Position numbers and translations under genes: made by a program
From: Escherichia phage vB_EcoP_C
DNA length: 44,970 nt
Sequence record: NC_047807.1
Reading direction: 5' to 3' (one strand)
In this document: positions 2,197 to 12,263 of the stretch, piece after piece
How positions within the stretch are numbered: position 1 is the stretch's first letter
Layout of the letters: the number at the start of each line of letters is the position of its first letter
The notes under the pieces: model-generated
What the model was told of the DNA's origin: nothing
The model's database searches: none
What the model saw: the letters and a program-made list of their open reading frames with translations, nothing else

Positions 2197-2254
2197 AGTT
2201 AATCCCTCATTCAATAAGTAATTAACCACGGCATACACAGGTTACACTAAGCAA

Positions 2255-2267
2255 ATTGTTAAAGAGC
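2255..2267. repeat. Conserved early-region 13-mer ATTGTTAAAGAGC, copy 4
   Basis: Exact repeat immediately upstream of the first early gene. Confidence 0.6.
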
Positions 2268-2419
2268 ATTGCGCTAACCTTGGTTTATCGTGGTAGGTTA
2301 TGCTTGCGCCATCTTCCACTATCTAACATTGTTTAACGGCTTCAGTAGCTAGGCCGGATAGTTAAGGACGCTCTCTATCATTCACCCTGAGTGTTTAATG
2401 TCGCTCCCGACTGATTGCT

Positions 2420-2448
2420 AATGTATACCTGTTAACTGCCTATGTCAA
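2420..2448 (-). promoter_or_regulatory. Candidate host sigma70 early promoter (TTGACA-17 nt-TACATT)
   Basis: Consensus -35, 17-nt spacer, -10 TACATT on minus strand in the non-coding region upstream of the early genes. Confidence 0.35.
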
Positions 2449-2675
2449 CACTAAATCGCACTAAGATAGATTATTTATGTGATACCTGTCACAACTGCTA
2501 AGGTAAACCTAGGTTGTCTAACGTGTGAGACTAAGGAAAGCAATAGATACAGAGCTAGGATAGGCTAGGACGGCTAGGTTTCTGGTGTTCCTCCTACTGC
2601 ATCTTATCACTATTACCTACTCTCAGCGGTCTACCGACCGCGACCTAATTGCATCTTATAGCTTTAGCTATGCAA

Positions 2676-3010
2676 TCACTAAGGTCTGGCACTAAGACTA
2701 ACTAAGGTACACTACTAAGTTGATACTAAGCTAAGCACTAAGGCTTTAACTAAGGCAGCCCACTAAGGCTAACCTAAGCCATCCATCAAGGAACAACCTA
2801 AGGTACACGTGAGCGAGTGAACGGAGCGCAAGCGGAGTGAACGAAACGAACAGATAGCCCACACCCTCACACCTTGTCAAACACTCAGGAATTGCCCTAA
2901 AACGGCCTGTGTAAGCCCTAAGCGGTTGCACTAAGGCAATCACCTTGTCCAACACTAAGGCGTGCCCTAGCGCTTCCTAGGCGTTCTACTTGTGCAGCCA
3001 CTAAGAGCAG
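2676..3010. repeat. Array of 12 or more dispersed copies of heptamer CACTAAG(G) in non-coding genome-end region
   Basis: Visible repeats of CACTAAG/ACTAAGG at irregular spacing; by analogy with T7-like short repeats near genome ends. Confidence 0.6.
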
Positions 3011-3204
3011 ACCTCGGCAAACCTCAGCCAACCCGTCGAGCTTCCTGCTGCCGCAGGTTGAAGACGGCCCAGCCTAGCCCAATTCCCAAGCCAACCGCAG
3101 CGCGGCCCCATATGGGGGAAATCCGGCGAGGGCGAGGGCGAGAGAGCTGACACACGCCTACATCAAAATTTTTTTGACTTTGGTTACTTTGTGACCACCT
3201 TTGG

Positions 3205-3360
3205 TTACACTAAGTCGAAACCTTGTGGCTTCTTCATGTAGCACTGGATAGTTCCACCAAGTACCTTCTGGCTGGCTAAGGCCGACTCCTCGGACTCATG
3301 AATCTTCCTGAGTACATTCTTCTGGAATGGACCTACACCATACGTATGAATCCAAATCAT
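3205..3360 (-). CDS. Small hypothetical protein (about 51 aa)
   Basis: Internal ATG of ORF-track frame with strong AAGGAGGT SD; lies in otherwise non-coding region. Confidence 0.3.
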   Translation of the reverse strand: MIWIHTYGVGPFQKNVLRKIHESEESALASQKVLGGTIQCYMKKPQGFDLV

Positions 3361-3430
3361 GTTACCTCCTTTGGAATACACTAAGAGCAGACCTAAGCCT
3401 GCCCTTGTGTACACTAAGATATTAACCTGC

Positions 3431-3580
3431 TTACGCAGAAGATGCAGAAGGTTTCTTCATGGTACGACGTTGAACATCCTTGGCAATGGCATAAGCCTGC
3501 TTAGGGTCACGTCCTGATTGAATAAGTTCTTCTGTGTTCTGGAGTACAGCAGCTTGCTTAACTGATTTTATTAGTGGCAT
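3431..3580 (-). CDS. Small basic hypothetical protein (49 aa) overlapping the 3' end of the endosialidase gene
   Basis: Hand translation MPLIKSVKQAAVLQNTEELIQSGRDPKQAYAIAKDVQRRTMKKPSASSA; GAGGA SD. Confidence 0.3.
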   Translation of the reverse strand: MPLIKSVKQAAVLQNTEELIQSGRDPKQAYAIAKDVQRRTMKKPSASSA

Positions 3581-5993
3581 ACATATCCTCTAACTTGTCT
3601 AAACGATAACGAGTATAAGCAGCCTCCAAGATTAAGATTTCACTATATCTAACACCAAACTGACCTTCTTCGAAGGAGACAATGCCGAAGTCGATTGCAT
3701 CTAACCCTTCGGATGCAAAAGCAGCTACAATGTCTTGTGCCAATACACCAAAGTGAGTGTGGTGCACACCACGAGACATCTCACCAATCAACTTGTACTG
3801 CTTGAAGCTAACCTTACCCCATGCCTTTAGTACACTCTCATCAATACCTTGTGATCCATACTTATGAGTGGCATCAGACGTAATAATAGGGTCACTTGTA
3901 AGATGGATAGTAGTGAATCTATTACGAGGGCCTCCAGCAGGATACACGTTATCATTGTATGGCATGATAGCCCCACTTTTGAACAAGTGCTCATTGGCAT
4001 TATATACTGCGCGTCTAGAAGTACTAGAACCTGCTCCATGTAAGGTAATTTGCGCACCGGTATCTGCTGCTGTACCCTCTCCCCCAGAGATGATAACACG
4101 TTGTGCGGTTGGGTTATCCGTTGGTATAGTCTTACCAATGAACCCATATTCACCTTCCATCAGCATCTCTGAGCGAATATTAGCACTTGTACTTGCCTTC
4201 AGGGTAAGGTGTTCGACAGTCATATCTGCGGCAACTACCTCTCCTGATAAGTGAAGTGGAGCAGGAATAGTACGAATACCATCAGTACCCATGAAGGTAG
4301 GTATAGCCTGACCCGGAGTTGCACCATATGTAAACTTACGAGATACACGATTGTCATTTGCAATCTGCATCTTATAGCAGTATATATCAGTGGGGTGTCC
4401 ATGACCTTTAAATGGGTCTTTATCTTTGTTGTCACCATAAGTCATTGGGTTGAAATGGTTTTCTCCACCAAAGATATAGTAAATGTAGCTGTCTTTAACT
4501 ACTACCGAACCTACACCTACACTAGAGTTCACAATGTCACCCTGATAGATTTGGTCTGTGATGTTAACCCATTCAATGTCATCTGCATTCCACTTGTTTA
4601 CATTCAATCGTGCATAGAAGGTACGAGGATAAGATGCCTTGTAACGATCATCTGGTGCACCTGCTTCCCATTCATTTTCTGCACGTTCTGAACCAAACAT
4701 AATAAGGTCATCTCCTACTTTAGCAAAAGGTAAGGTAGTATGATGAACATTATGTGGAAATCTTAGTGACTCCCAAGTTTGACCTATATCTCTACTACGA
4801 TGCAGAGAGCTTCCTAGTCGATCGCCACGAGTACCACGAGTGATAAGGTACAATACACCGTCATAGTACTTGATGCATGGCTCTGCCGCATCTGGTTCAT
4901 ACTCAGATGGTATCTGACGACGAACATAATTAGATGGGCTATTGAAAGCATCAGGGAAGTAGAAAAGCCCAACTTCTCGTGGAGCTACATCACCTTGATG
5001 ATAGCCCATAACAAAGCCATTGTTATCAATAGTAGCAAAGCTATGCACCTCTGTGACACGAGGGATTAGACCAAGATCTGTCTTACGCCAAGGAGATTTA
5101 TGGAAAGAAGTACCCATGTGCCAACTCTTTCCAGCGTTATTCAAATCTGAAGTCTGCTGGTTAGGTGTAAGAACCGTGAAGTTGTCCTTATCTATTACTG
5201 TTGCAACCTTCATATCACCAGATACACCTGTTACCGCAGAGTTAGAGAAGTTAACAAAATCACCAACGAAGAGTCCGTGATCAGGTACATGGATTGTTGC
5301 ATATCTCTGATTTGCAGCCTTAGTGATACCACCAGTAAGATGCAGACTACGAGACATAGGGCGATCCCACAATGCACAATTGGTTAGTGCGTTCTTGGCT
5401 AAAGTACGTGTTTCAATCATGGCAAACAGACGGTTGCGACATACACCCATACTCATACAATGATAGTTCACTGTAGGGTAATCTGGATGCAGATCAGTTA
5501 ACCACTCTGGAGTAGACCATGTTTGACCATCGTCACCAGACTTAACCCATGATACATGCAGACGACTAACACCATGACGGTCGCTACCCATGTAAGGTGC
5601 ATATATCACGTTCTCATATACAAACGCTTTGTCTTGAGGCCAAGCATTGTAATAAGGGTTATCCGTGATTTTATAGAGTTCACCATTGATAAAACCTTTA
5701 CTCACATAGTAAAGAGGTTGACCTGCTAAACGTTCCCATACGAAGCGGGTGTTATAGAATCGCTCCATATCAGGTAAAGATGATACTTTGTAAGTAGCAC
5801 CAGCACCGTCAATTCTCTTACCTGAAGCCATCGCTGCATTTACTGCATCTTGGTCGTTTGTCTTACCATCACCTTTGGCTCCAAAATCTTTAAGCGATAC
5901 AACCTCGGTGAGCTTGTCATCCAAGTTACGCCAGATTGCACCTGCTATTTTACTCTTGAATTTAACTAATGAAGAACCTAGTCTTTGAATCAT
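3558..5993 (-). CDS. Tailspike endosialidase (K1 capsule depolymerase) with C-terminal intramolecular chaperone domain, 811 aa
   Basis: Recalled similarity to phage endo-N-acetylneuraminidases; C-terminal chaperone-like block (...SDATHKYGSQGIDESVLKAWGKVSF...); strong AAGGAGG SD. Confidence 0.85.
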   Translation of the reverse strand: MIQRLGSSLVKFKSKIAGAIWRNLDDKLTEVVSLKDFGAKGDGKTNDQDAVNAAMASGKRIDGAGATYKVSSLPDMERFYNTRFVWERLAGQPLYYVSKGFINGELYKITDNPYYNAWPQDKAFVYENVIYAPYMGSDRHGVSRLHVSWVKSGDDGQTWSTPEWLTDLHPDYPTVNYHCMSMGVCRNRLFAMIETRTLAKNALTNCALWDRPMSRSLHLTGGITKAANQRYATIHVPDHGLFVGDFVNFSNSAVTGVSGDMKVATVIDKDNFTVLTPNQQTSDLNNAGKSWHMGTSFHKSPWRKTDLGLIPRVTEVHSFATIDNNGFVMGYHQGDVAPREVGLFYFPDAFNSPSNYVRRQIPSEYEPDAAEPCIKYYDGVLYLITRGTRGDRLGSSLHRSRDIGQTWESLRFPHNVHHTTLPFAKVGDDLIMFGSERAENEWEAGAPDDRYKASYPRTFYARLNVNKWNADDIEWVNITDQIYQGDIVNSSVGVGSVVVKDSYIYYIFGGENHFNPMTYGDNKDKDPFKGHGHPTDIYCYKMQIANDNRVSRKFTYGATPGQAIPTFMGTDGIRTIPAPLHLSGEVVAADMTVEHLTLKASTSANIRSEMLMEGEYGFIGKTIPTDNPTAQRVIISGGEGTAADTGAQITLHGAGSSTSRRAVYNANEHLFKSGAIMPYNDNVYPAGGPRNRFTTIHLTSDPIITSDATHKYGSQGIDESVLKAWGKVSFKQYKLIGEMSRGVHHTHFGVLAQDIVAAFASEGLDAIDFGIVSFEEGQFGVRYSEILILEAAYTRYRLDKLEDMYATNKIS

Positions 5994-6060
5994 GTAACCT
6001 CCTTTTCTGAAAGGCTACCATCATGATAACCTTTAAGAAAAGTTGCGCGAAAAGCAGTGC

Positions 6061-6396
6061 TTACGCACTGACAATGTGTTTACCTAGAATGTAAACATCT
6101 ACATCTATGTCTATTTCAACTTGTGCTGTATGGAATACATGTACTTCTAATCTAGTATCTGACACTTTAGTAATCCAAGCTGTACAAAGTGTAGGTGTAC
6201 TTAATGATACAAGTGATGCCCACGAAGAATCTAAATCTCCTGTTGCAGGTACTTCTATCTCAATTTTAGTATCTTCACTTGGGACTACACCTTCAAATGT
6301 AACACGCCTTTTAGATAGTAAATTATCCAATAATGTAGCTAGTACAGTATCTCTATGTAGTAAGCCAGTTGTCTTGGGTTTAGTTAACTTAGCCAT
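6061..6396 (-). CDS. Short tailspike-module protein (111 aa), possible vestigial second tailspike or adaptor
   Basis: ORF-track frame with start moved to ATG at 6396 (AGGAG SD); sits directly downstream of promoter 6475-6497 and upstream of endosialidase. Confidence 0.55.
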   Translation of the reverse strand: MAKLTKPKTTGLLHRDTVLATLLDNLLSKRRVTFEGVVPSEDTKIEIEVPATGDLDSSWASLVSLSTPTLCTAWITKVSDTRLEVHVFHTAQVEIDIDVDVYILGKHIVSA

Positions 6397-6474
6397 ATAC
6401 TCTCCTATTACTTCCCAACCCTCCCTATGAAGATTGGCTAGTAATAGGCCGCTCAAAAGAACGGCACTATCTTA

Positions 6475-6497
6475 TCTCTTCTATAGTGTCAGTAAAT
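6475..6497 (-). promoter_or_regulatory. SP6-type phage RNAP promoter (ATTTACTGACACTATAGAAGAGA)
   Basis: Member of 11-copy promoter family; intergenic between lysis genes and tailspike module. Confidence 0.7.
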
Positions 6498-6526
6498 CGT
6501 AAGACACTGATACATAAAACTATGTA

Positions 6527-6724
6527 TTAATTATACCCGTGTTCTAGCGAGAGAATGTACATACCTAATTTTGTAGCGTCAGGTTTACTGAAGCAGACTT
6601 TATCGTCCACCTCGTAGACTGCCGTAAGCGTCGGCTTCAGAGGCTTCACCTTTGGATTCTCTGGTAACGCCGTCTGACACCCTGAAGTGATCAGCGAACC
6701 AATCAGCAGGATTGTCGCTAGCAT
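6527..6724 (-). CDS. Putative o-spanin (Rz1-like outer-membrane lipoprotein), about 65 aa
   Basis: Internal ATG with GAGG SD; lipoprotein signal MLATILLIGSLITSGC then Pro-rich segment; overlaps the neighbouring membrane-protein frame. Confidence 0.55.
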   Translation of the reverse strand: MLATILLIGSLITSGCQTALPENPKVKPLKPTLTAVYEVDDKVCFSKPDATKLGMYILSLEHGYN

Positions 6725-8172: not shown

Positions 8173-8901
8173 ATAAGTCCTTGAAATCCTTGCAGAAAGT
8201 GTATTTCTGCTTGCCGATTTACTCCTGTAATTCTGACCGTATACTCTTTGCTGCATAGCCACGGAAGTGTTGGTTACTCTTCGCTCAGTGCCATAATCTC
8301 CATAGAGCATTGCCCTACGGAGGTGAGGTGTGTTCATAGCTTGGATATAATCGCGCATCTCCTGCGCTCTGAGGCGATTAATCCGTGTAACCTCGTCATA
8401 GTCTATCTGAGAAGTTAATTGCCGTATAGCGCCATACAGCGCGTCTAAGCGGTCATCGTGCCGGAGGCTGTTCTTCTCAATCGTGATGTTCGACATTTGA
8501 TTGAAAAGGCTGTATGACATGCGTAGTTCAAGCGGATAGTGCTGTACCGACTCAAAATCAGACTTGACCATCTCTGCGTTGAAGATGAGCCTGTGGGCCG
8601 CCATTAGTGGCTCTAGTGTTTCAATGATACGCAACTCTTTCTGTCCGGTGGCGTAATCTTCCTCCAGAGTCACAGGCCACTCTCGTTCAAAGTATGGCTT
8701 TATAACGGCCTCAAACGCGCCATGACCAAAGTTCTTTTCAATGAATACCTCTTTAACACCTGCCTGCTTTGCGGCCTGCACAATGCGATTCAGGGACGAT
8801 TCGCGGTATCCTCCCGGCACACCAAAGCACTGATACACATAAATGAATGTGCCGTGCAGGAAGACGATAGCCACACCCGTTTCATCCCCATTCTTACCTC
8901 C
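8170..8901 (-). CDS. Terminase large subunit, exon 2 (nuclease domain; GGKNGDETGVAIV onward)
   Basis: ORF-track frame 8170-8952 carries the terminase nuclease motif; sequence upstream of 8901 is intron-derived. Confidence 0.8.
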   Translation of the reverse strand, partial: GGKNGDETGVAIVFLHGTFIYVYQCFGVPGGYRESSLNRIVQAAKQAGVKEVFIEKNFGHGAFEAVIKPYFEREWPVTLEEDYATGQKELRIIETLEPLMAAHRLIFNAEMVKSDFESVQHYPLELRMSYSLFNQMSNITIEKNSLRHDDRLDALYGAIRQLTSQIDYDEVTRINRLRAQEMRDYIQAMNTPHLRRAMLYGDYGTERRVTNTSVAMQQRVYGQNYRSKSASRNTLSARISRTY

Positions 8902-9427
8902 CGGTTTGAACGTGACGTGCGAGCCAACCCTTGTGGTGTTTACGTAAACCATGTGCCACCTTACGCATATTCTGAGGTGTTAGGTTGTGCTCTTTACAGA
9001 AGTCAGTAATGCAAGTTACAAGAAACTCTTCACCATCTGGAGAAGTGAATATGTAATCTTTGCCAGTACCTTTGTTGTAAGGTGTCATGCCTTTCTTGAA
9101 CTCAGTGGCAACAGACAAGTGCTGTCCTTTCTTGATTTCAGTGGCAATACTTATGCGTTCACCTTTCTCGATGTTACCTGCTTTGCGATAACCACCTTTA
9201 CCCTTATTCCAACCCATGTTGTCATGTGGGCGTAGCTTCTCTTCTAGTGCATAACACTCTTCTTTGCTACCAGTGAATAAGATAACGTACTCGCGGCCAT
9301 CACAAAGACGGCCTGCACACTTGTGCTCTCTCATACGCTTCTTAATATCGGAGGTTACACCAATATAACCTTGCATTACATCAGTTTCACCAACAACACG
9401 AATATGATAAACTTTATGCTCTGTCAT
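8894..9427 (-). CDS. GIY-YIG homing endonuclease (intron-encoded), 177 aa
   Basis: GIY-YIG-like motif (VYHI...11 aa...YIGVT), conserved R/E/N positions, C-terminal NUMOD-like repeats; own GGGAG SD; lies inside the terminase intervening sequence. Confidence 0.8.
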   Translation of the reverse strand: MTEHKVYHIRVVGETDVMQGYIGVTSDIKKRMREHKCAGRLCDGREYVILFTGSKEECYALEEKLRPHDNMGWNKGKGGYRKAGNIEKGERISIATEIKKGQHLSVATEFKKGMTPYNKGTGKDYIFTSPDGEEFLVTCITDFCKEHNLTPQNMRKVAHGLRKHHKGWLARHVQTGR

Positions 9428-9647
9428 ATTTAACTCCCTTCAATTGTTACGTTAATTCGCTACTTTAACTTCTACTAGTCACCTAGTAGGTCGGACTATA
9501 TCTTAGGCTTGCGCCTCCCTCTGTTTCAGACCGCTTGGCCTTACAGTTAGTCTCTACACGTTCCTGTTATTGCAACAGGCTTCGCTCGGTATTGTCTCAG
9601 TGAGAGTTCCACCGAATTAAGAGGGTTTTACGCTGGCAGAGGTGTTT
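8902..9647 (-). mobile_element. Group I self-splicing intron (about 746 nt) in terminase large-subunit gene
   Basis: Splits terminase within YIDPAG|GGKNGDETG; P1 (exon GCUGGU with intron GCCAGC 9632-9637); P10 (intron CCUCU with exon-2 GGAGG); P7 core elements GACUA (9546-9557) and AAGAUAUAGUCC (9493-9504); P9-like hairpin with GUGA tetraloop. Confidence 0.75.
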
Positions 9648-10814
9648 ACCAGCGGGGTCAATGTACATAATTTTACGGGTGACAGCGCCCCATTCATACG
9701 GTCGGGCCACAGGGCGATACATAAAGTCTGTAGGCTTATTGCCATACTTCGGTGCATCGCCAATGATGTTAATAGAGTCGTTGCTCCATGTAGGCATCAC
9801 AGGGACTTCCTCTGTACCGAATGAAGTGAAGATGAGGTTGTTCAGGCGTAGCGGATAGCGGTCAGCATCCATCATGCGAGTGTTAAGCATAAACTGAAGC
9901 TGGAACTTAGCCGCACCCTGCGAGATTTCCTTCTCAATCAGCACATCATCATCATACATTTCAGGTGCACAAGGGGCACCACTATTGCCATCCAAGCCAT
10001 ACCCTGAGCGAAGTGCTGGGTTGTCCTTCATATCCTGCACAATCATAGGTGCAAGGAAGTCGCCATAGCATTGCTCCTGCTCCACTGAGGGATAACGTGC
10101 AGTCCAGATACGAACAGAGTAACCACGAGCAGGTAGGTTATTGTAGATAGAGTTTACGTTCTGAGGAGTACCAAGGTAGATAATATCACCAAACTGGTTA
10201 ATAGATTCAAACTCCTTGGTCAGTTCCTCAAGCAAGGCACGTCCTGCCGCTGTACGAGCATTCTGCATTGACTCAACGTCATCTGCTAGGATGATATCTG
10301 CACGCGCACCCTGCATACCTGCTTCGATTGAGTAACAAGACACAGAAGGCGACTTGTCACTGCCACGTAGGGTGTAATGAATCTCAAATGCCTTAACTGA
10401 GGCACGGTCCCCTGCGTAGATGTCCGGTAGCATAAACTCAAGAAAGTCTAGGCCACGGAAGATTTTAACTACCCAACCTGCGATTTCCTCTGCTCGCTTG
10501 GCGTTTTGGGATACAACCATGATACGCTTATGCGGTTCATGAATGATACGGAATACTGTATAGATTGCTGATAGTGTTGTCTTAGCGATACCACGAGGCG
10601 CTTCGATGAGGCGATACTTGTGTCCGTAGAATAGGAACTTCAAGATATCAGCCTGCATACGAATCAGATGAGGGTTGCCTGCAATTAAGTTATGAATAAC
10701 TGTGTCTGCAAAGAGAAGCAAACCTTCCGCTGTGTAAGGAAAGGTCTGCTGTAACTCCTGTAGCATCTCCCATCTGGCAAGAGCCTCCGCTTGTGATTCT
10801 CTTGCCTTAGCCAT
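9648..10814 (-). CDS. Terminase large subunit, exon 1 (ATPase domain)
   Basis: T7 gp19-like sequence; ATG at 10814 overlaps terminase-small stop (TGATG) with AAGGAGG SD; reading frame runs into intron after ...YIDPAG. Confidence 0.85.
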
Positions 10815-11300: not shown

Positions 11301-12263
11301 TTACACTAGTTGTAGCTTCACACTTACGACACACTCAGGTAATGGCTCACTGAAAGTGATAGTAGACCCTACGATTTCATAAGCATTATTAGGTTGATAC
11401 AGGCCATCCAAGTATACATCAAGACGTTGGAAAGCCGTTACAATGTCGATAGATTGTGTACCTTCACTCACTGCTTGTGTAAAGAGGATAGTATCCGCAC
11501 TTGTAGGTGGGGTTAAGCGACTACCGATAAGCACATAAACTTCATCCCCAGCCTGTAATGGCTCGGACAGGGTTATAACATCATACCCCACTGATACTGC
11601 ACCTGCTAGTTCATGCTGGAATACACCGTTTATAAACACCATAGCATCATCAAATGAGTAAGGTGGTCGAATGATTTGCTCTCCACCGGAGGCGACCATA
11701 TACCAAGGAATCGTGCGATGAGATACACCAGACACCATTCCTCTCTTAATACCAGCAATCTCTATATCTTGTGCAGAGTTCCAATCAGTATGCTTCTTGT
11801 CGATAGCATCTAGCTGTGATTTATTTACTGCATCTTTTGGATTCTCACCATCAGCTAGGTCAGTAATCTTATTGCCGCCCCAGCTTACATTCTGCTTAAT
11901 GAAGTATCCTTCTGGATAAAACCCATCAAGTAACTCCTGTGTAATCTCCAGTATATGAATGAAAGAGCCATTTAAAGACTTCATATCCAAGGTAACACCA
12001 CGGTCAAACTCAGCGTATGGATATTCCTTTTGTACTTCCCTTCGAATACGGAACTTCAAACCTGCAACAGGTGCTACATCAAAAGTGATTTGATGCGTAC
12101 CAGTTAATTGCCAGCCAGATGTAACCTCAATCCAAGTGTTACCTTGAAGAGATTCCACTATCACATCTGAGGCACGAAGATAGCCTTTATCCCTGCCAGC
12201 AAAGCTAAAGGGATAGGTTACTTGCGTACCGTTGGCTATATGTTCTGTGAAAGTATAACTCAT
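11301..12263 (-). CDS. Tail fiber/tailspike adaptor protein (T7 gp17 N-terminal-domain-like), about 320 aa
   Basis: N-terminus MSYTFTEHIANGTQVTYPFSF resembles T7-like tail-fibre attachment domains; no long C-terminal receptor-binding region. Confidence 0.65.
   Translation of the reverse strand: MSYTFTEHIANGTQVTYPFSFAGRDKGYLRASDVIVESLQGNTWIEVTSGWQLTGTHQITFDVAPVAGLKFRIRREVQKEYPYAEFDRGVTLDMKSLNGSFIHILEITQELLDGFYPEGYFIKQNVSWGGNKITDLADGENPKDAVNKSQLDAIDKKHTDWNSAQDIEIAGIKRGMVSGVSHRTIPWYMVASGGEQIIRPPYSFDDAMVFINGVFQHELAGAVSVGYDVITLSEPLQAGDEVYVLIGSRLTPPTSADTILFTQAVSEGTQSIDIVTAFQRLDVYLDGLYQPNNAYEIVGSTITFSEPLPECVVSVKLQLV

Follow-up and report, generated by a model that had tools for sequence, protein, structure and literature searches.

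The genome of Escherichia phage vB_EcoP_C (NC_047807.1), whose 44,970-nt sequence, the whole stretch of DNA analyzed, we refer to as the window, raises a simple question: what is a gene for a 111-aa protein doing between a phage promoter and the gene for an 811-aa endosialidase, in a slot where related phages have a full tailspike? A first-pass annotation had described positions 3558-6497 as a host-range module shaped by receptor swapping, and had taken the short gene for the remnant or the adaptor-binding stub of a lost or exchanged depolymerase. Every feature of that module was found, all of them on the minus strand and at the positions assigned to them there (Table 1); the last position of the span, 6497, is the exact 5' end of the promoter. 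The identity of the genes follows from 100% DNA identity over 3400-6600 to the Escherichia phages vB_EcoP_D and vB_EcoP_R (Vectrevirus) and 92% to K1E, whose counterpart genes are gp46 and gp47, and from the annotation of the same three elements in K1E and in GenBank X78310, where they appear as a promoter, a "12kDa ORF," and the "gp90" endosialidase. This K1E-type tailspike module is thus real and previously described, and in all likelihood it serves a K1E-like Vectrevirus as its receptor-binding (host-range) module, the capping and exchange proposals made below included.

Table 1. Features of the tailspike module and the associated adaptor gene, with window coordinates, strand, and basis of assignment
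Feature	Position	Strand	Basis
SP6/K1E-type phage RNA polymerase promoter	6476..6497	-	ATTTACTGACACTATAGAAGAG; exact core match; X78310 annotation
Structured 5' leader, two hairpins	6405..6465	-	RNA fold and covariation
gp46-like protein, 111 aa, 12.2 kDa	6061..6396	-	ORF; PHROG 15083; X78310, K1E, and vB_EcoP_D annotation
GC-rich hairpin GCAGTGC-GTAA-GCACTGC, then TTTT (first base T in the window)	6054..6072	-	Conservation and covariation
Second intergenic hairpin	6002..6042	-	Fold and pairing across 11 phages
gp47-like endosialidase (endo-N-acetylneuraminidase), 811 aa, 90.3 kDa	3558..5993	-	Pfam; PDB matches; catalytic residues
C-terminal intramolecular chaperone domain of gp47, residues 706-811, 11.8 kDa	3561..3878	-	Peptidase_S74; 3gw6; 3gud
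gp48-like ORF, 49 aa	3431..3580	-	PHROG 2423 (E 1.2e-23); annotated in K1-5, AAPEc6, ACG-C91
Adaptor protein, gp37-like, 320 aa	11301..12263	-	Pfam Phage_T7_tail; PDB 7y22_e; PHROG 2710

K1E (AM084415; earlier X78310) agrees with the window in gene order, promoter, leader, intergenic region, and the lengths of the two proteins; its gp46 is 96-97% identical to that of the window, and it shares the split terminase with a homing endonuclease upstream; the window differs from it by a 1-nt promoter deletion. No difference was found over 3400-6600 from vB_EcoP_D and vB_EcoP_R, which are Smith and Huggins therapeutic K1 phages (PMC5582158). The records of these two phages measure 44,931 and 44,941, respectively, against 44,970 for the window, which is circularly permuted relative to both.

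The Pfam matches of the larger protein, all above cut-offs, are End_N_terminal, End_beta_propel (E 1.9e-222), End_beta_barrel, and End_tail_spike (PF12218, PF12217, PF12195, and PF12219, respectively), that is, the GH58 set of an N-terminal extension, a six-bladed β-propeller with an inserted β-barrel, and a triple-β-helix stalk, with the catalytic and stalk part spanning residues 39-705. Propeller, barrel, and stalk are near-identical to those of endoNF of phage K1F (PDB 1v0e and 3gvl; E 0 over residues 38-705), and His140, Arg339, Glu371, Arg386, and Arg437 align with endoNF His350, Arg549, Glu581, Arg596, and Arg647, the key active-site residues of that enzyme (PMC12632334). Directly after the stalk, at the junction IIT/SDATHK, comes a Peptidase_S74 domain (PF13884, residues 706-763, E 1.2e-8), which matches the endoNF chaperone construct 3gw6 (E 8.6e-58) and 3gud, whose alignment begins at Ser706, the conserved serine that endoNF has at the same junction. 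By every sequence criterion, catalytic residues and Ser706 included, the protein is therefore an endosialidase with a C-terminal chaperone-like domain, as first annotated. Cleavage of polysialic acid is documented in the literature for the K1E gene product, 92% identical in DNA (PMC6966330), and autoproteolytic release of the chaperone domain is predicted to occur at Thr705/Ser706, which would leave a 78.5-kDa mature spike.

Where gp47 and endoNF part is in how they attach. endoNF attaches directly and has at its N terminus a long capsid-binding domain of the T7 gp17 type, in place of which gp47 has a 38-residue N terminus for a separate adaptor. The gene for a gp37-like adaptor lies outside 3558-6497 yet is part of the tailspike system; its product consists of a T7 gp17-like N terminus (PF03906) without a receptor-binding body and matches the "tail adaptor protein" 7y22_e over its full length (E 4.8e-84). 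The heptapeptide MAKLTKP at the start of gp46 and the undecapeptide MIQRLGSSLVK at the start of gp47 (encoded at 5961-5993), the two docking peptides of a dual-tailspike phage, were both read from the sequence, and they align to their counterparts in K1-5, Mt1B1_P10, CrRp3, SP6, and Proteus phages. For the physical docking on gp37 we rely on published work, which assigned the slot 1 heptapeptide and the slot 2 undecapeptide to two sites of the adaptor (PMC6872550, PMC6966330), and in which a passage of a review of cryo-EM work has gp46 and gp47 each joined to the K1E virion by gp37 (PMC6966330). The stub and modular-swap interpretation has likewise been published already (PMC6966330, PMC6872550).

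What, then, is gp46? The gene starts at ATG 6396, with AGGAG ahead of it, as annotated in X78310, K1E, and vB_EcoP_D; a mechanical ORF listing begins 20 codons earlier, at a TTG. The protein belongs to the K1E gp46 family (PHROG 15083, E 2e-73, positions 1-111 of 111), which a tblastn search of 50,697 phage records finds in 26 records at 84-100% identity. The gene is full-length in 25 GenBank phage records, and 22 of these have it at 111 codons. Its likeness to tailspikes is confined to the N terminus. Residues 1-24, comprising MAKLTKP and a predicted helix, are common to first-slot tailspikes and the likeness extends weakly to residue 46, so that comparison with second-tailspike N termini came out positive: residues 1-46 align with K1-5 gp46, the K5 lyase (39% identity, E 7e-7 for the pair), and gp46 also aligns to the solved K5 lyase 2x3h among PDB sequences. 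Beyond residue 46, the HMMER scan and targeted tailspike comparisons found no similarity to any tailspike, and after its docking segment gp46 has no receptor-binding or enzymatic body of the kind that defines a tailspike or capsule depolymerase. It has been described as "very small and truncated," without enzymatic activity (PMC6966330).

For residues 25-111, no relative was found beyond K1E-like phages in the tblastn search, among 5.8 billion proteins, in an exhaustive HMMER profile scan of 1.84 billion representatives, or by sensitive blastn with the 300-nt cassette, and there was no homologue among PDB sequences and no match in a targeted set of 19 slot 1 and slot 2 spikes. No Pfam domain of gp46 exceeded its cut-off, and a match to the OCRL ASH domain below it (E 0.071) was rejected as noise. 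Structure models, with a pLDDT of 49.8 from the single sequence and 58.4 from a four-sequence alignment, are of low confidence and too weak to classify; they contain about six short strands. Foldseek searches with the model returned only the ACG-C91 orthologue from BFVD at E ≤ 0.001 and nothing below E 0.078 from the PDB, and scattered weak fold matches to small tail-fibre β domains, from searches that were not significant, were discounted. On these models, residues 25-111, which were found only in the K1E-like lineage, may form a β-rich domain.

The slot itself is filled differently in relatives, where, in agreement with the first-pass annotation, it holds a full tailspike. K1-5 and AAPEc6 have the K5 lyase there (632 aa), Mt1B1_P10 has a protein of 479 aa, and SP6 has a tailspike of 550 aa. 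That such bodies have been exchanged at conserved flanks is visible directly in DNA alignments. Homology to K1-5, AAPEc6, Mt1B1_P10, and SP6 ends at 6371, 6365, or 6377 and restarts at 6070 (6090 for Mt1B1_P10), and homology to SP6 ends again at 5962 and restarts at 3597. The cassettes are thus bounded by three conserved DNA segments, or handles. One comprises the promoter, the leader, and the opening 7-9 codons of gene 1, another the intergenic region together with the opening 11 codons of gene 2, and the third the gp48 region. The first two provide the promoter and leader before slot 1 and the conserved region between slots expected of a dual-tailspike phage. In the third (3439-3597; 83.6% DNA identity to SP6), the gp48-like ORF shares 23 nt with the end of the endosialidase gene. 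The handles were found in 107-108 records of Escherichia, Salmonella, Proteus, Citrobacter, Pectobacterium, and Lelliottia phages. K1-5 shares with the window the promoter, leader, both docking peptides, the intergenic hairpins, and a 90% identical endosialidase gene, whereas its slot 1 holds a lyase with its own chaperone domain instead of the 111-aa protein, the exchanged segment measuring 1,881 nt there and 300 nt here. SP6 has the same three handles (76-88% DNA identity) and the docking peptides MSLTKP and MIQRLGSSLVK, whereas its gp46 and gp47 cassettes are O-antigen-specific spikes unrelated to gp46 and the endosialidase of the window. Relative to K1E, the endosialidase is more diverged (dS 0.31) than gp46 (dS 0.08), which indicates mosaicism.

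Two of the three handles also encode covarying RNA hairpins. The module promoter matches the 16-nt core TGACACTATAGAAGAG exactly (predicted +1, G6481), and allowing up to three mismatches the core occurs 11 times in the window, always on the minus strand; the chance expectation is 0.63. Its 1-nt deletion (GG to G, at about -9/-10) sets it apart from all compared relatives except vB_EcoP_D. The leader, which folds at -33.9 kcal/mol (z -6.17), consists of hairpin 1 (6448-6465) and hairpin 2 (6405-6447), the latter with an internal loop and a 3' arm that overlaps the AGG of the gp46 Shine-Dalgarno sequence. Across 10 phages from three genera, 99.2% of cells are paired, compared with 38-55% when the partners are slid, and both sides have changed in six pairs. 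The intergenic region as a whole also folds stably (z -3.92). In its GC-rich hairpin, the loop of which contains the gp46 stop codon TAA, both sides change in four of seven pairs (CrRp3, SP6, and Proteus phages). The 3' arm of the second hairpin extends into the Shine-Dalgarno sequence of gp47 (AAAAGGAGG). In a comparison of 11 phages this hairpin has 93.8% of its cells paired, most of them invariant or changed compatibly on one side. The compensatory changes in the hairpins come from a few independent lineages, namely, the Proteus clade, SP6, and CrRp3. The GC-rich hairpin, a putative terminator in the annotation of KAW1A4500 and LL11, may be a partial terminator or an RNA 3'-end element.

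Whether gp46 is being kept or lost can be read from its codons. Pairwise dN/dS is 0.14-0.44. Codons 25-111 alone have a pN/pS of 0.19-0.39, and in the pairs that have diverged most they show an excess of synonymous change (P = 2e-5 to 6e-4); residues 25-111 are under purifying selection rather than decaying. With only residues 1-24 tailspike-like and the remainder under such selection, gp46 is a maintained adaptor-binding stub and not a demonstrable depolymerase fragment. Of the two initial proposals the adaptor-binding stub is supported, while a depolymerase remnant is not demonstrable, residues 25-111 having matched nothing outside K1E-like phages in the searches above. Going further, one might tentatively see in residues 25-111 no depolymerase fragment at all but an orphan β-rich domain of K1-only phages, kept by selection and evolved or captured as a cap for the empty first site on gp37, and in the handles functional structured RNAs as well, a joint reading that we regard as possible but somewhat against the odds. 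The RNAs could then be RNase III-type processing or translation-control hairpins in which both Shine-Dalgarno sequences are embedded, and such functions, if real, would account for the conservation of the handles across genera while cassettes turn over.

The same data make it unlikely that the 111-aa gene is what a deleted tailspike gene left behind, functionless, open by chance, with no role in the virion, and transcribed only through its position between the promoter and the endosialidase. The absence of homologues of residues 25-111 outside K1E-like phages would fit such an origin, as would the published description of the protein as truncated and inactive, and the ORF ends in a conserved hairpin loop, as expected if the junction simply runs to the first stop codon. 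However, the synonymous excess reaches P = 2e-5, and length and frame are kept at synonymous divergence of up to 0.38. Frameshifts in the K1A and mutPK1A2 records also speak for a leftover and, if real, imply that the phage can grow on K1 hosts without full-length gp46. Their positions differ between the parent and mutant records, and one or both may therefore stem from sequencing errors.

Purifying selection tells us that gp46 has a function, not what that function is, and the protein might instead work in solution or during assembly and not as part of the virion, for instance, as a transient shield of the gp37 site or a helper that orders endosialidase attachment and is then released. Its small size, acidic pI of 5.4, and conserved docking peptide suit such a role, which we nevertheless consider decidedly improbable given that the review passage cited above has gp37 linking gp46 as well as gp47 to the K1E virion and that no sign of gp46 release was found. 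Finally, it is very improbable that gp46 is a truncated K5 lyase derived from K1-5 gp46 by internal deletion, in which case K1E-like phages would descend from a K1-5-like dual-host phage: although the aligned N termini are nearly identical over their first eight residues, and K1-5, AAPEc6, and ULINTec7 have the lyase in this very slot, beside the 90% identical endosialidase gene, DNA homology to K1-5 ends at about codon 9 and restarts only when 10 nt of the ORF remain, a sensitive blastn search with the 300-nt interior found no lyase gene, residues 25-111 compare with the K5 lyase at E > 1 in the 19-protein database, and the N-terminal motif is equally present in unrelated slot 1 spikes, such as that of Mt1B1_P10.

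The module probably works as follows. The late phage-polymerase promoter would yield a single transcript in which the structured leader and the intergenic hairpins flank the two genes. Gene 1 would provide a 12-kDa nonenzymatic protein made of the first-slot docking peptide (MAKLTKP and a short helix) and a small β-rich domain in place of a depolymerase body, which most likely occupies or caps an otherwise vacant first docking site on gp37. gp47 would form a trimeric endosialidase that depolymerizes the α-2,8-polysialic acid K1 capsule; its folding would be aided by the C-terminal chaperone domain, which would then be cut off at Ser706, and it would dock through MIQRLGSSLVK on the C-terminal site of gp37. 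The three conserved segments would serve as handles for homologous recombination, through which phages exchange entire tailspike bodies.

Host-range change in podoviruses has a textbook example in this module, whose two-site adaptor, short docking peptides, and conserved flanks together make depolymerase genes exchangeable as whole units. Since such modules are already in use in phage engineering, pyocin engineering, and depolymerase therapy, seeing one again adds nothing fundamental. What our analysis adds is the recognition of the small protein as an orphan domain that purifying selection maintains, and not a decaying fragment, together with the exact coordinates of the three exchange handles and the overlap of their covarying RNA hairpins with both ribosome-binding sites. 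Phage engineers may find this useful for choosing cassette boundaries and for deciding whether to keep gp46.

Some other signals were set aside. Plus-strand ORFs (e.g., 3868-4254, 4251-4691, and 6107-6430) were dismissed because they run antisense to well-supported genes and all transcription of this genome is from the minus strand, and scans for sigma-70 promoters and intrinsic terminators yielded about as many sites as chance predicts. Neither the leader nor the intergenic hairpins have a family in Rfam, whose single match in the window is a group I intron in the terminase gene.

The promoter, the 111-aa gene and the 811-aa endosialidase gene lie where the first-pass annotation had placed them, as confirmed by the ORFs and by the exact promoter core, and the end of the region it delimited is the promoter's 5' end. 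This module is that of phage K1E and is already known: it has been described from 1995 onward and was explained structurally in 2007. GenBank entry X78310 (K1E) annotates the same arrangement, that is, a promoter, a ribosome-binding site, a "12kDa ORF" and a "gp90" endosialidase, for which the calculated masses in the window are 12.2 kDa and 90.3 kDa; the K1E genome names the two genes gp46 and gp47, as we do here. All well-supported genes of the window are carried by the minus strand, and GC skew is negative along the whole length. When up to three mismatches are allowed, the promoter core has 11 matches in the window, all on the minus strand (0.63 expected by chance). The automatic ORF list starts the 111-aa gene at a TTG located 20 codons upstream of the ATG.

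Coordinates of the tailspike module, its conserved flanks and the adaptor gene
Feature	Position	Strand	Remarks
Promoter ATTTACTGACACTATAGAAGAG	6476..6497	-	16-nt core exactly of SP6/K1E type
111-aa ORF (gp46)	ATG at 6396 to 6061	-	AGGAG before ATG; start as annotated in relatives
811-aa ORF (gp47)	3558..5993	-	From ORF listing
RNA hairpins	leader 6405-6465; intergenic 6002-6072	-	Covary across three phage genera
Handle 1	homology ends at 6371 (K1-5, AAPEc6), 6365 (Mt1B1_P10), 6377 (SP6)		Promoter, leader, first 7-9 slot-1 codons
Handle 2	homology back at 6070 (6090 in Mt1B1_P10); ends again at 5962 in SP6		Intergenic region and first 11 slot-2 codons
Handle 3	homology back at 3597 (SP6)		Last ~40 nt of endosialidase gene and overlapping 49-aa gp48
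Adaptor gene	11301-12263		T7 tail-fibre N-terminal domain; PDB 7y22_e "tail adaptor protein", full length, E 4.8e-84

Over 3400-6600, identity is 100% with two Vectrevirus members, Escherichia phages vB_EcoP_D and vB_EcoP_R, 97-99% with phages K, B, K1A and mutPK1A2, and 92% with K1E; D and R are part of the historic Smith and Huggins collection of therapeutic K1 phages (PMC5582158). The promoter before gp46 reads ATTTACT-GACAC, with one G fewer than the ATTTACTGGACAC form found in K1E, K1A, mutPK1A2, ACG-C91, KAW1A4500, ULINTec6, K1-5 and Mt1B1_P10. This 1-nt deletion, which moves the upstream AT-rich block by one base and is shared only with vB_EcoP_D among the loci compared, may be an error in a short GG run.

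The identification of the 811-aa protein as an endosialidase with a C-terminal chaperone domain is borne out by Pfam, by solved structures and by conserved key residues, and all the defining features that we tested for the endosialidase family and the S74 chaperone domain are present. The protein matches all four endosialidase Pfam domains (β-propeller, E 1.9e-222), with a Peptidase_S74 "chaperone of endosialidase" domain at residues 706-763. K1F endoNF (1v0e, 3gvl; E 0) aligns nearly unchanged to residues 38-705, the chaperone-containing construct 3gw6 matches with E 8.6e-58, and the alignment of the phi29 gp12 chaperone domain (3gud) begins at residue 706. The key endoNF residues H350, R549, E581, R596 and R647 (PMC12632334) correspond to H140, R339, E371, R386 and R437. 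At the junction, IIT|SDATHK, Ser706 aligns with the start of the chaperone domain, and cleavage there is predicted to release an 11.8-kDa fragment and leave a mature spike of 78.5 kDa. From near-identity to known proteins, we infer both endosialidase activity and cleavage at this junction.

As for the small gene, our analysis reads gp46 as a maintained adaptor-binding stub carrying an orphan β-rich domain, because it has a docking N terminus, no further similarity and no sign of decay. The protein begins with MAKLTKP, and MIQRLGSSLVK is likewise present in the window. According to two reviews of K1E/K1-5 cryo-EM (PMC6872550; PMC6966330), the former motif attaches the first tailspike, which in K1-5 is the K5 lyase, to the middle of the adaptor gp37, and the latter attaches the endosialidase to the C-terminal part of gp37. 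Every defining feature of the SP6/K1E/K1-5 adaptor system that we tested was found. In BLASTP, residues 1-46 align with the K1-5 lyase (39% identity, pairwise E 7e-7), an identical alignment is obtained with the K5 lyase structure 2x3h, and residues 1-23 are common to the unrelated 479-aa protein of Mt1B1_P10 in slot 1, the first of the two tailspike gene positions. Of the two origins first proposed for this gene, the adaptor-binding stub thus stands, since residues 1-46 align to the K1-5 lyase, whereas a depolymerase remnant is not demonstrable.

Past residue ~24 (46 at most), no search found similarity outside K1E-like phages. Against phage GenBank, tblastn with gp46 returned 26 records, all K1E-like, and blastn with the 300-nt interior of the gene returned the same 26; a search of 5.8 billion proteins gave three clusters only, each 111 aa long, and an HMMER profile scanned exhaustively against 1.84 billion representatives hit only the family itself. 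Residues 25-111 matched none of 19 slot-1 and slot-2 proteins (E > 1), and no tailspike body was detected in the 111-aa protein. The structural models are weak (pLDDT 49.8 and 58.4), suggesting a helix at residues 15-24 and then six β-strands, and fold searches with them gave no significant match. The DNA homology boundaries contradict a reading of gp46 as a truncated K5 lyase.

Pairwise dN/dS is 0.14-0.44 (against ACG-C91, dS 0.37, and other relatives), and for codons 25-111 by themselves pN/pS is 0.19-0.39, the most divergent pairs showing an excess of synonymous change (p = 2e-5 to 6e-4); both ratios indicate that the gene is not decaying. Most probably, gp46 serves to occupy the adaptor's first docking site. 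Two records carry frameshifts: an annotated 1-nt deletion at nt 130 truncates gp46 in mutPK1A2 (3201-3545), and K1A (297-640) has a 1-nt insertion at gp46 nt 143, 13 nt from that deletion. If real, they would make full-length gp46 dispensable in culture, but parent and mutant differ in where the shift lies, which suggests a sequencing error in at least one of them.

Start codons of slot-1 and slot-2 tailspikes look misplaced in several RefSeq records. In SP6 (NC_004831, 3775), slot 2 is annotated from VKMPNG, with MIQRLGSSLVK encoded immediately upstream; PM116 (4490) and PM93 (4580, 6719) are annotated from an upstream GTG, before conserved MSLTKP, MALTK and MLQRLGS starts.

Pairwise DNA comparison reveals three conserved "handles," segments bounding exchangeable tailspike cassettes. 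Homology in handle 2 restarts within the gp46 ORF, 10 nt short of its end, and the slot-1 cassette spans 300 nt in the window versus 1,881 nt in K1-5. Handle 1 occurs in 108 phage records and handle 2 in 107, including Salmonella, Proteus, Citrobacter, Pectobacterium and Lelliottia phages with many different cassettes; the 111-aa cassette was only ever found alongside an endosialidase. Between the same phage pairs, synonymous divergence of the endosialidase gene is 2-4 times that of gp46 (dS 0.31 versus 0.08 to K1E, 0.88 versus 0.37 to ACG-C91), so mosaic recombination has given the two neighbours different histories.

The handles also contain RNA hairpins, two in the leader (6397-6475; -33.9 kcal/mol, z -6.17) and two in the intergenic region (5994-6090; -29.9 kcal/mol, z -3.92). 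In ten phages (Vectrevirus, Zindervirus, Acadevirus), 99.2% of the leader structure is paired versus 38-55% with partners slid, with six pairs changed on both sides. For the first intergenic hairpin, 4 of 7 pairs show both-sided change (CrRp3, SP6, Proteus phages). These covariation statistics overstate the support, because few independent lineages contributed the compensatory changes. The second intergenic hairpin is conserved, with mostly one-sided, compatible changes. In the first intergenic hairpin, the GTAA loop holds the gp46 stop codon, and 3' arms contain parts of both Shine-Dalgarno sequences (gp46 and gp47). No Rfam family covers the leader or intergenic hairpins, which some depositors annotated as terminators; T7 late mRNAs offer an analogy that would make RNase III processing, or a role in tuning translation, plausible for them.

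A 74-nt copy (85% identity) of the intergenic hairpin region is found at 4501-4574 in Escherichia phage alia (NC_052655) and also in vB_Eco_J-01, both 147-kb Justusliebigvirus myoviruses, directly 3' of a 574-aa tail protein gene. At the DNA level, the flank alone matches Vectrevirus or Zindervirus, and the body of that gene does not; the copy may have been left by cassettes moving between unrelated phage families.

Elsewhere in the window, an exact 746-nt insertion (8902-9647, minus strand) interrupts the terminase large-subunit gene, which is continuous in ULINTec4, ACG-C91 and ULINTec6. The insertion holds a GIY-YIG/NUMOD homing-endonuclease ORF (8894-9427, minus strand), and Rfam gives a full-length group I intron match (9472-9720; 61 bits, E 3.5e-13) whose P1 is probably misplaced because the 5' end of the match enters exon sequence. 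K1E has the same arrangement, annotated as gp40A/40.5/40B without an intron label. Downstream, the module is adjoined by a mostly non-coding, GC-richer stretch (2245-3418, minus strand) with 12 of the window's 25 CTTAGTG heptamers (7.5 expected in the whole window). This is probably the genome-end or terminal-repeat region, so that the window would be circularly permuted and contain the physical ends; ocr and other early genes come next at lower coordinates.
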